From positions 26,040,001 through 26,104,000 of the forward strand of contig OZ024748.1 in assembly GCA_964016885.1 (NCBI GenBank): a DNA stretch of 64,000 nucleotides, given 5' to 3'. Origin of the DNA: Eledone cirrhosa (taxonomy: Eukaryota). The position numbers were made by a program, and so were the translations under genes. The notes beneath the pieces were generated by a model. The model saw only the letters and a list, made by a program, of their open reading frames with translations, searched no databases and was not told where the DNA came from. Of the stretch, positions 34,801-38,212 are shown piece after piece; positions within the stretch are counted from its first letter, which is position 1, and each line of letters opens with the position of its first letter.

Positions 34801-37800
34801 TATCGAGAATGACACAGCTAGAGACTTATAGAATACTTAGCTGTGTACAGGAACTGGTTTGAAAGAGCGGTTGCCGGTCCGGCAGAAATTAGAAATTGGA
34901 ATAAATGCTCTGAAATAGCGATATATATATGAATATAGACATAGAATATTCGAAAATATTCTGTATGTTTATAATAAACATTTTGAAGACCTAATCGCTA
35001 TAGAATAGAATACGTCACGTATTACAATTAGATTCTCGATAAAAGCAAGGGAAGTAATCTACGCGTTTCATTCTTGTTAGAATTCATCAGGACTACATAT
35101 CCAGTGCTTTTATCGAGAATGACACAGCTAGAGACTTATAGAATACTTAGCTGTGTACAGGAACTGGTTTGAAAGAGCGGTTGCCGGTCCGGCAGAAATT
35201 AGAAATTGGAATAAATGCTCTGAAATAGCGATATATATATGAATATAGACATAGAATATTCGAAAATATTCTGTATGTTTATAATAAACATTTTGAAGAC
35301 CTAATCGCTATAGAATAGAATACGTCACGTATTACAATTAGATTCTCGATAAAAGCAAGGGAAGTAATCTACGCGTTTCATTCTTGTTAGAATTCATCAG
35401 GACTACATATCCAGTGCTTTTATCGAGAATGACACAGCTAGAGACTTATAGAATACTTAGCTGTGTACAGGAACTGGTTTGAAAGAGCGGTTGCCGGTCC
35501 GGCAGAAATTAGAAATTGGAATAAATGCTCTGAAATAGCGATATATATATGAATATAGACATAGAATATTCGAAAATATTCTGTATGTTTATAATAAACA
35601 TTTTGAAGACCTAATCGCTATAGAATAGAATACGTCACGTATTACAATTAGATTCTCGATAAAAGCAAGGGAAGTAATCTACGCGTTTCATTCTTGTTAG
35701 AATTCATCAGGACTACATATCCAGTGCTTTTATCGAGAATGACACAGCTAGAGACTTATAGAATACTTAGCTGTGTACAGGAACTGGTTTGAAAGAGCGG
35801 TTGCCGGTCCGGCAGAAATTAGAAATTGGAATAAATGCTCTGAAATAGCGATATATATATGAATATAGACATAGAATATTCGAAAATATTCTGTATGTTT
35901 ATAATAAACATTTTGAAGACCTAATCGCTATAGAATAGAATACGTCACGTATTACAATTAGATTCTCGATAAAAGCAAGGGAAGTAATCTACGCGTTTCA
36001 TTCTTGTTAGAATTCATCAGGACTACATATCCAGTGCTTTTATCGAGAATGACACAGCTAGAGACTTATAGAATACTTAGCTGTGTACAGGAACTGGTTT
36101 GAAAGAGCGGTTGCCGGTCCGGCAGAAATTAGAAATTGGAATAAATGCTCTGAAATAGCGATATATATATGAATATAGACATAGAATATTCGAAAATATT
36201 CTGTATGTTTATAATAAACATTTTGAAGACCTAATCGCTATAGAATAGAATACGTCACGTATTACAATTAGATTCTCGATAAAAGCAAGGGAAGTAATCT
36301 ACGCGTTTCATTCTTGTTAGAATTCATCAGGACTACATATCCAGTGCTTTTATCGAGAATGACACAGCTAGAGACTTATAGAATACTTAGCTGTGTACAG
36401 GAACTGGTTTGAAAGAGCGGTTGCCGGTCCGGCAGAAATTAGAAATTGGAATAAATGCTCTGAAATAGCGATATATATATGAATATAGACATAGAATATT
36501 CGAAAATATTCTGTATGTTTATAATAAACATTTTGAAGACCTAATCGCTATAGAATAGAATACGTCACGTATTACAATTAGATTCTCGATAAAAGCAAGG
36601 GAAGTAATCTACGCGTTTCATTCTTGTTAGAATTCATCAGGACTACATATCCAGTGCTTTTATCGAGAATGACACAGCTAGAGACTTATAGAATACTTAG
36701 CTGTGTACAGGAACTGGTTTGAAAGAGCGGTTGCCGGTCCGGCAGAAATTAGAAATTGGAATAAATGCTCTGAAATAGCGATATATATATGAATATAGAC
36801 ATAGAATATTCGAAAATATTCTGTATGTTTATAATAAACATTTTGAAGACCTAATCGCTATAGAATAGAATACGTCACGTATTACAATTAGATTCTCGAT
36901 AAAAGCAAGGGAAGTAATCTACGCGTTTCATTCTTGTTAGAATTCATCAGGACTACATATCCAGTGCTTTTATCGAGAATGACACAGCTAGAGACTTATA
37001 GAATACTTAGCTGTGTACAGGAACTGGTTTGAAAGAGCGGTTGCCGGTCCGGCAGAAATTAGAAATTGGAATAAATGCTCTGAAATAGCGATATATATAT
37101 GAATATAGACATAGAATATTCGAAAATATTCTGTGTTTATAATAAACATTTTGAAGACCTAATCGCTATAGAATAGAATACGTCACGTATTACAATTAGA
37201 TTCTCGATAAAAGCAAGGGAAGTAATCTACGCGTTTCATTCTTGTTAGAATTCATCAGGACTACATATCCAGTGCTTTTATCGAGAATGACACAGCTAGA
37301 GACTTATAGAATACTTAGCTGTGTACAGGAACTGGTTTGAAAGAGCGGTTGCCGGTCCGGCAGAAATTAGAAATTGGAATAAATGCTCTGAAATAGCGAT
37401 ATATATATGAATATAGACATAGAATATTCGAAAATATTCTGTATGTTTATAATAAACATTTTGAAGACCTAATCGCTATAGAATAGAATACGTCACGTAT
37501 TACAATTAGATTCTCGATAAAAGCAAGGGAAGTAATCTACGCGTTTCATTCTTGTTAGAATTCATCAGGACTACATATCCAGTGCTTTTATCGAGAATGA
37601 CACAGCTAGAGACTTATAGAATACTTAGCTGTGTACAGGAACTGGTTTGAAAGAGCGGTTGCCGGTCCGGCAGAAATTAGAAATTGGAATAAATGCTCTG
37701 AAATAGCGATATATATATGAATATAGACATAGAATATTCGAAAATATTCTGTATGTTTATAATAAACATTTTGAAGACCTAATCGCTATAGAATAGAATA

Positions 37801-37812
37801 CGTCACGTATTA
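31831..37812 (-). mobile_element. Tandem array of 19 complete + 1 partial 310-bp units, each complete unit with a hammerhead ribozyme (retrozyme-like)
   Basis: Unit starts (gaatatagac) every 310 bp from 31831 to 37101, then 37409 and 37719; the only difference noticed is a 2-bp deletion near 37135; no ORF within a unit. Confidence 0.88.
31954..31996 (-). ncRNA. Minimal type I hammerhead ribozyme (first of 19 tandem copies)
   Basis: - strand: gtagtc-CTGATGA-attct(aaca)agaat-GAAA-cgc-GTA-gattac; complete core, palindromic helix III ACGCGT, GUA cleavage triplet; helix I extended by a perfect 16-bp stem 31932-31947 / 32005-32020. Confidence 0.88.
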
Positions 37813-38165
37813 TATTCATATATATATCGCTATTTCAGAGCATTTATTCCAATTTCTAATTTCTGCCGGACCGGCAACCGCTCTTTCAAACCAGTTCCTG
37901 TACACAGCTAAGTATTCTATAAGTCTCTAGCTGTGTCATTCTCGATAAAAGCACTGGATATGTAGTCCTGATGAATTCTAACAAGAATGAAACGCGTAGA
38001 TTACTTCCCTTGCTTTTATCGAGAATCTAATTGTAATACGTGACGTATTCTATTCTATAGCGATTAGGTCTTCAAAATGTTTATTATAAACATACAGAAT
38101 ATTTTCGAATATTCTATGTCTATATTCATATATATATCGCTATTTCAGAGCATTTATTCCAATTT
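37811..38165 (+). mobile_element. Inverted ~1.15-unit copy of the 310-bp repeat capping the array
   Basis: Reverse complement of the unit; 2-bp TA overlap at the junction; followed by (TA)n 38166-38212. Confidence 0.92.
37962..38004 (+). ncRNA. Hammerhead ribozyme in the inverted copy
   Basis: gtagtc CTGATGA attct aaca agaat GAAA cgc GTA gattac read directly on +. Confidence 0.88.
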
Positions 38166-38212
38166 ATATATATATATATATATATATATATATATATATA
38201 TATATATATATA

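Follow-up and report, generated by a model that had tools for sequence, protein, structure and literature searches.

Metazoan retrozymes without long terminal repeats (non-LTR retrozymes) are tandem arrays of non-coding 170-400-nt units with one type I hammerhead each and a GC content below 50%, which are present in thousands of copies, show target duplications of more than 4 bp and co-occur with Penelope-like elements (PLEs). Their circles have been proposed to be reverse-transcribed into multimers with PLEs as the likely helpers (PMC7229834, PMC7761336), and Li, Clavereau and Pollet (2026; bioRxiv 10.64898/2026.07.22.740005) tied retrozymes to pseudo-LTRs (pLTRs) through co-occurrence and phylogeny; the parts of that preprint available to us contain no analysis of insertion ends. 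How hammerhead RNA circles enter animal genomes, and why PLEs give tandem or inverted copies with a single tail, are left open in these papers as far as the parts available to us go. Here we describe an array of 310-bp units in a 64,000-nt stretch of the Eledone cirrhosa genome (contig OZ024748.1, positions 26,040,001 to 26,104,000; called the window), which is a real and well-replicated retrozyme with a Penelope signature at both of its insertion ends.

The insertions resemble those of endonuclease-bearing PLEs (PMC8557442, PMC3846280), which likewise have head-to-head arms, a tail on one side only, (TA)n targets and microhomology at the 5′ junction, and which carry non-coding cargo in trans; unlike those elements, the Eledone retrozyme has no open reading frame (ORF), both of its arms are long multimers of the 310-bp unit and its junctions are non-palindromic. 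A further parallel comes from in vitro work on the green anole element Poseidon PAc (PMC11167929). Its protein, for which a dimer is predicted, cuts both strands and extends them from two neighbouring internal sites that form the limits of the tail. Two such internal starts, an AT-rich target and cutting and extension of both strands recur in the likeness between PAc and the Eledone retrozyme.

Anatomy of the array and its family

The array consists of two arms meeting head to head (Table 1; positions refer to the window, and the monomer is numbered from the predicted hammerhead cut). Units start at 31821 and then every 310 bp up to 37709; of the 19 full ones 18 have the same sequence and one, with a 2-bp deletion, is 308 bp long. 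The initial annotation had read the array as flipping, over a 2-bp TA overlap, into a 355-bp inverted copy, with the sense 3′ end lying at the unit's internal (AT)5 and the inverted copy running about 30 nt beyond that tract. All of these coordinates hold: the forward array follows the unit through 37812 and the inverted copy does so from 37811, the left end runs into (AT)n exactly at the (AT)5, and the inverted copy continues for 28 nt beyond the tract before the (TA)n run, which itself spans 38165-38212. On the monomer the AT tract occupies 130-139 (site A) and the tail of this locus ends at 167 (site B).

The unit has a stem I of 6 bp, CUGAUGA, a stem II of 5 bp, GAAAC, a short stem III that is palindromic, and a GUA triplet, a combination that we take to be the minimal layout of a type I hammerhead. 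The sense of the long arm, the minus strand, was assigned from this motif, and the cut is predicted between 37998 and 37999 in arm B. A single unit folds far better than its shuffles (z −5.85, none of 100 equal); it gave no match in Rfam at the gathering score, and stem III is weak, so that the ribozyme may cut poorly. In a scan of the window no ORF of 100 amino acids was found in the array interior, which is thus non-coding. Since it is built of non-coding tandem units of such a size with one predicted type I hammerhead each, as in the definition of PMC7229834, we class the array from its sequence as a copy of a non-LTR retrozyme. With its 310-bp units it also has the dispersed high copy number, the low GC content (0.33-0.34) and the target duplications of more than 4 bp of the known families. 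It is inserted like a PLE but is without the reverse transcriptase (RT) and GIY-YIG ORF, so it is no autonomous PLE and the element is non-autonomous. In the parts of the papers available to us metazoan non-LTR retrozymes are described as tandem arrays only, with no head-to-head arms, fixed A and B ends or variants shared across arms, and whereas the repeats of PMC7761336 are given there as lacking a motif that indicates the mobilising element, the ends of the Eledone retrozyme do indicate one. No two-armed retrozyme insertions were found in the literature searched, which did not cover supplementary figures and subscription journals.

Copies were counted by short sequence patterns, and the end-pattern and internal-pattern searches (three) gave no control matches. 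An internal 21-mer has 16,588 matches in the 3.0-Gb genome, and there are 1,230 matches to A-type ends and 788 to B-type ends, the latter on the forward strand only (the reverse-strand count of 3,103 was left unused as the same end is counted several times). Ends stopping before the AT tract gave 12 matches, an incomplete count as one TA phase only was searched. The family thus comprises roughly 1,200-1,600 loci, and is young and very common. For closer inspection 120 stretches were sampled, all on contig C1 and most of them chosen by end pattern, in which case only the opposite end counts as a test.

The first set comprised 81 loci including the window, two stretches being merged as one array and one stretch holding two copies. 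Two head-to-head arms were present at 69 of these 81, and all 69 have one A and one B end. Of 25 loci selected on their internal sequence without regard to the ends, 21 have two arms, in every case A+B. The second set, 40 loci chosen on the A end, gave 35 two-armed loci, again all A+B, four with an A arm only and one that ran off its stretch. Pooled, 104 of 120 complete loci are two-armed, and every one of the 104 is head-to-head with an A and a B end. This recurrence of two end points, together with the absence of control matches, argues that the end pattern is not due to chance. Two of the one-armed loci (L045, L049) have a 10-12-nt stub of the B arm.

More than one unit is present in both arms at 89/104 loci (56/69 in the first set, 33/35 in the second), with median lengths of 3.2 units for A and 4.1 for B, A being the longer at 36/69. 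The inverted 5′ copy of the initial annotation is therefore a genuine inversion, which is the rule in the family, but it is a second, usually multimeric arm and not a short inversion. The window locus, with 19.3 units against 1.15, is an extreme case of arm length that makes arm B resemble a short 5′ inversion.

One two-armed insertion (L055) is present twice, 3 kb apart and beside an assembly gap, either through local duplication or mis-assembly. At L055:1144 and 1610 and at L231:8067-9552 there are other tandem repeats that carry a hammerhead; their periods are about 466 and 483-511 bp.

Table 1. Features of the retrozyme locus and of the two coding elements used for comparison, in window positions
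Feature	Position	Strand	Remarks
Left (AT)n target	31699..31830	.	final 10 nt shared with the (AT)5 inside the unit, site A
Arm A, 19.33 tandem 310-bp units classed as retrozyme	31821..37812	- (sense)	3′ end at site A
Head-to-head arm junction	37811..37812	.	TA microhomology of 2 bp; positions 36 and 123 of the monomer
Arm B, 1.15 units, 355 bp	37811..38165	+ (sense)	3′ end lies at B, position 167 of the monomer
Predicted minimal type I hammerhead	37962..38004	+	sequence read and fold; one per unit
Internal (AT)5 tract within arm B, position of site A	38128..38137	+	
Tail, B end only	38138..38165	+	28 nt beyond the tract; 38 nt counted from tract start
Right (TA)n target	38166..38212	.	
PLE, young, assigned to the Hydra clade; comparison element	1762..5961	+	ORF 2044-4239; inverted arm; 87-nt tail
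Truncated PLE; comparison element	58087..60380	-	endonuclease fragment 59225-59836 without CCHH; inverted arm; 89-nt tail

Outer ends, targets and template

Across the family A ends fall at monomer positions 126-139 and B ends at 154-172 (mode 165), a spacing of about 35 nt. A (TA)n tract follows 211 of 220 3′ ends (142/150 in the first set, 69/70 in the second), and at loci chosen by internal sequence the target is AT-rich or (TA)n at 42/46. At non-TA targets duplications of 11-15 bp can be read (for example L081, L094, L092, L076 and a few more of the 67 loci examined); at pure TA sites such duplications are unreadable. Random end points, non-TA flanks and missing inversions, the outcome that would have spoken for another origin, were looked for across the loci and were not what was found. 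Insertion of the PLE type is highly probable in our judgement, and the annotation's proposal of a Penelope-type insertion in trans is borne out by the fixed ends, the (TA)n at the 3′ ends and the inversions.

The annotation had also proposed that the (AT)5 anneals to the (TA)n target as primer. At most loci the AT tract is interrupted by a C at 131, and among 75 A ends with an interrupted tract the target letter, a T, replaces this C in 43, the C is kept in 26 and copying stops at 126-128, short of the tract, in 6; for loci not chosen on the A end the replacement figure is 21 of 31. Copying at A would thus usually begin where the tract has its 5′ edge, at 129-130, the tract itself being covered by the primer, and a primer-tract pairing of about 8-10 bp is possible there. 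The start at A lies usually just past a mismatch, however, target homology at B is only 0-3 nt, and non-TA targets (L081, L094) yield nearly identical end points. Annealing would explain site A at most. It is probable that the end positions are set by the protein with pairing helping at site A, and for such help at A itself the balance tips slightly in favour. A TA-like tract is kept in the same place in the sister retrozyme families described below.

The two arms of a locus share their sequence variants. They agree in their majority variants at 69/73 loci; given 32 haplotypes among 65 loci, the agreement expected by chance is about 0.10. Seventeen locus-fixed variants were each seen in one sampled locus, and 16 of these belong to loci where each arm has full units, though with about 91 of 1,500 loci scored some may come from unsampled sources. 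Passage over the predicted cut is clean: 1,095 of 1,101 passages agree with the locus majority, compared with 1,164 of 1,178 in a control stretch, so that there is no scar at the cut in each round. This points to a closed circle or an uncut multimer as template, and not to repeated jumping on a cut monomer. Repeated copying of a cut linear monomer, with the enzyme returning each time from the 5′ end of this template to the 3′ end, would mimic a circle, and template jumps do exist in the family (inserted bases at 14/67 junctions and internal jumps at L031, L108 and L280), but with only 6 deviating passages, against 14 in the control, and no enrichment of breakpoints at the cut we consider this very improbable.

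Two-strand Penelope-type priming on an uncut multimeric source transcript, the arms copying the same or sister transcripts, would equally account for the shared variants and the clean passage. Uncut RNA is the dominant substrate in vitro (PMC11167929), and stem III of the unit is weak; 8/9 Xenopus elements were uncleaved (bioRxiv 10.64898/2026.07.22.740005). On such a linear template, however, arms would be expected only to shorten with each generation, yet young arms reach 19-27 near-identical units, and no arm enters source flanks. A circle is favoured because truncated linear copying only shortens arms and because fixing a new variant in all units of a locus requires a monomer bottleneck. 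The 12 core hammerhead positions carry none of 30 locus-fixed substitutions, which are too few for significance, and no selection on the overall fold was detected (10 pair-breaking variants against 12 expected, P 0.24). Breakpoints also lack the relation known from the L1-type twin priming model, in which one arm stops where the other was primed: 18 of 134 lie within 15 nt of the other arm's start against 13.4 expected. Overall the linear template seems unlikely to us, and a circular one quite probable.

The lengths of the arms fit an exponential, that is memoryless, distribution (Kolmogorov-Smirnov P 0.19), which bears on whether short pLTR-like two-armed insertions were expanded later by unequal crossover in the manner of a satellite. 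Local amplification was proposed by Li et al. 2026 (bioRxiv 10.64898/2026.07.22.740005), and variant patterns repeat in the longest arrays (L095+L089 with 45 units, L043, L047 and L279). Opposite arms are, on the other hand, both expanded at most loci with ends and junctions still exact, and most units per locus are identical without propagated private changes; as an origin of the arms in general this explanation is decidedly improbable.

Among 67 simple junctions 53 are blunt or overlapping and 14 have the inserted bases mentioned above. Overlap at the 53 has a mean of 2.26 nt against 0.75 in simulation, and is 2 nt or more in 60% against 18% (P 8e-12). The 202 pooled breakpoints are uniform round the unit (P 0.36); 6.5 of them would be expected to lie no more than 5 nt from the predicted cut, and 3 do. 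Self-priming on antisense template, the junction forming a fold-back palindrome (Arkhipova et al. 2013), a model put forward for head-to-head PLE repeats (PMC3846280), could be invoked for the few junctions near fold-backs (L043, L257, L272), but the two breakpoints lie within 15 nt of each other at only 6/67 junctions, about the chance level; and a DNA inversion unrelated to PLEs cannot yield two differing fixed outer ends at 104/104 loci. Either form of this explanation is hardly credible. That the two-armed structure is more than an artefact of assembly is indicated by independent short-read contigs: those of run X1 contain four other arm-to-arm joints with 2-3 shared letters, the joint of the window locus not being among them, as well as 10 loose (AT)n ends at site A.

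Single contigs of 340 nt (310 + 30; one each in runs X4, X5, X6, X7 and X10) and of 280 nt (one in X16) were considered as evidence for circles, and in the four examined there is a joint returning to the start. They were rejected, because tandem DNA looks alike, the runs are of unknown kind or DNA, and traces of the 16,000-copy DNA suffice. Changes private to a unit are, on the sense strand, T>C in 19 cases and A>G in 6 (P 0.04), a weak hint of reverse-transcription errors. Fixed A>G changes do not significantly exceed T>C (8 against 5, P 0.27) as a mark of RNA editing; A>G does recur, on 6 backgrounds at position 276 and on 5 at position 20, and 6/8 of the fixed A>G changes are in predicted stems, which is suggestive only of editing. 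At L074 one arm changes from A to G part-way at 276 (a UAG context in hammerhead stem I), where editing or a template switch is possible.

Coding PLEs and candidate helpers

The element at 1762-5961 is assigned to the Hydra clade by its motifs, by comparison with PMC8557442: the translation of its ORF has a DKT motif, a CxCX5C linker and an endonuclease without CCHH, and the element has a (TA)n target and a hammerhead. Pfam gave no matches for either PLE protein of the window. This element has at least 61 genomic copies of 97-100% identity and forms tandem 4-kb units, and the six fully visible two-armed loci (five and that of the window) all have A and B ends, 87 nt apart. The young Hydra PLE also occurs in a retrozyme-like manner as full-length tandem (period about 4.0 kb) and two-armed multimers (L141-L160; G000 C7:78452852-78462958).

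The initial annotation had linked the array to the two coding PLEs of the window through a shared asymmetry. The architecture is of the same kind, but their extensions are 87 nt and 89 nt rather than about 30 nt, and in sequence the unit has nothing in common with them except an AT-rich match of 27 nt. Because of these tails, compared with about 35 nt in the retrozyme, and the lack of homology, they are probably analogues of the retrozyme and not its partner. A PLE of the Neptune type is more likely to fit as helper in trans than the Hydra elements, since in five such families (L169, L171, L227, L238, L239) the tail measures 39-41 nt, or about 28-35 nt for L239, and the cut-to-A distance is 114-125 nt, similar to the 130 nt of the retrozyme; they also have a palindromic short stem III. 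They show no significant sequence similarity to the unit, and the likeness is geometric only. The families of this genome differ in tail length, which looks specific to each of them: values of about 35-41, 65-70, 87-89 and 98 nt were seen, compared with 30-40 bp in the literature. A two-ended family with a 68-nt tail has a hammerhead stem II closely like that of the unit (L045, L146, L223, L226, L230, L238).

Two sister retrozyme families were found, with a tail motif 75-82% identical and no consistently attached ORF in 30 loci. They are older, have units of about 312-322 bp and share flanks and tail motif while the hammerhead segments differ, one having a U3-A8 core variant (L162:2441-2866, L160:7830-8290, L191-L220; L094:6630-7450, L097:3320-3810, L221:280-706); one of the two has 2,307 pattern matches. 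Two candidate partners were dismissed. A match beside a Neptune ORF at L162 (82% over 62 nt) is a separate sister retrozyme in that element's (TA)n, and an apparent Hydra/retrozyme chimera at L160 is two insertions with simple repeats between them.

Elsewhere in the window a SINE-like repeat (SINE, short interspersed element), seen by eye, lies at 31530-31698 beside the left (AT)n. More PLE-like ends, with small two-armed elements between (TA)n tracts, are found at 38213-38330, 38490-39130, 39170-39390, 57516-57910 and 6022-6340. The segment 38500-39050 resembles a broken GIY-YIG fragment, and 47092-53956 is a 6.9-kb minisatellite with a basic period of 20 bp.

Proposed mechanism and meaning

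We consider it probable that the arms arise by Penelope-type priming on both target strands combined with rolling-circle copying of one RNA circle; such a route has been proposed previously. The hammerhead would cleave transcripts of the array into monomers of 310 nt, which would then be closed to circles. A PLE protein acting in trans, more likely of the Neptune type than the Hydra elements of the window, would nick the two strands of AT-rich DNA with a stagger of about 11-15 bp. Copying from one of the target's 3′ ends would begin at A, pairing with the AU tract probably helping, and from the other at the protein-set B. From either start it would go round the circle, the number of rounds being roughly exponentially distributed with a median of 3-4. 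Microhomology of 1-4 nt would then serve to join the cDNA ends of the two arms; a few very long arms were expanded afterwards by local duplication. As to whether a single molecule serves both arms, we lean by a small degree towards it.

Several points weigh against this account. A single arm is present at 16/120 complete loci (12/81 in the first set, 4/39 in the second). The lengths of the A and B arms are uncorrelated (rho 0.18, P 0.14; rho 0.19, P 0.26), so that two enzymes working in step are not evident. The arms differ in majority variants at 4/73 loci, and L074 and L076 are mosaic for A and G at position 276. In L095+L089, L043 and L047 the repeating variants reveal a degree of local duplication. 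Matching arms would also be expected from a homogeneous linear multimer that came from a single source locus. No coding partner sharing unit sequence was found in 50 GIY-YIG, 30 Hydra ORF and 30 sister-family loci, 110 sampled loci that only partly cover the many PLE families of the genome. The sampling was confined to one contig and guided mostly by end pattern, as noted above. Circular RNA and cleavage have been shown for metazoan non-LTR retrozymes, whereas for the Eledone unit both are predicted from the genome sequence. In the in vitro work with PAc (PMC11167929), besides the preference for uncut RNA, hammerhead activity was dispensable. The starts of PAc are also not homologous to the target, do not differ between the strands and act on an uncut linear template, whereas site A of Eledone lies in a target-like tract and A and B are each used once per two-armed locus.

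Tentatively, and with rather less confidence than for the rolling-circle reaction itself, PLEs might more generally be two-headed rolling-circle machines, one dimer on one RNA circle with two independently rolling starts on a staggered cut. The spacing of the starts would then be specific to the family, about 35-40 nt in the retrozyme and Neptune-type elements and 87-89 nt in Hydra, and the tail, the inverted arm, tandem pLTRs, retrozyme arrays and 4-kb autonomous elements would all be products of one reaction.

The family offers about 1,500 young insertions that follow a strict rule of one A end, one B end and one set of variants. With it, the published in vitro PLE assay could be given a defined substrate of 310 nt together with its two start sites, its target and the stagger. 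The apparently family-specific tail length is a possible way to match non-coding elements with their helper, and tool builders might be interested in an enzyme able to roll on small circles and to integrate at (TA)n.

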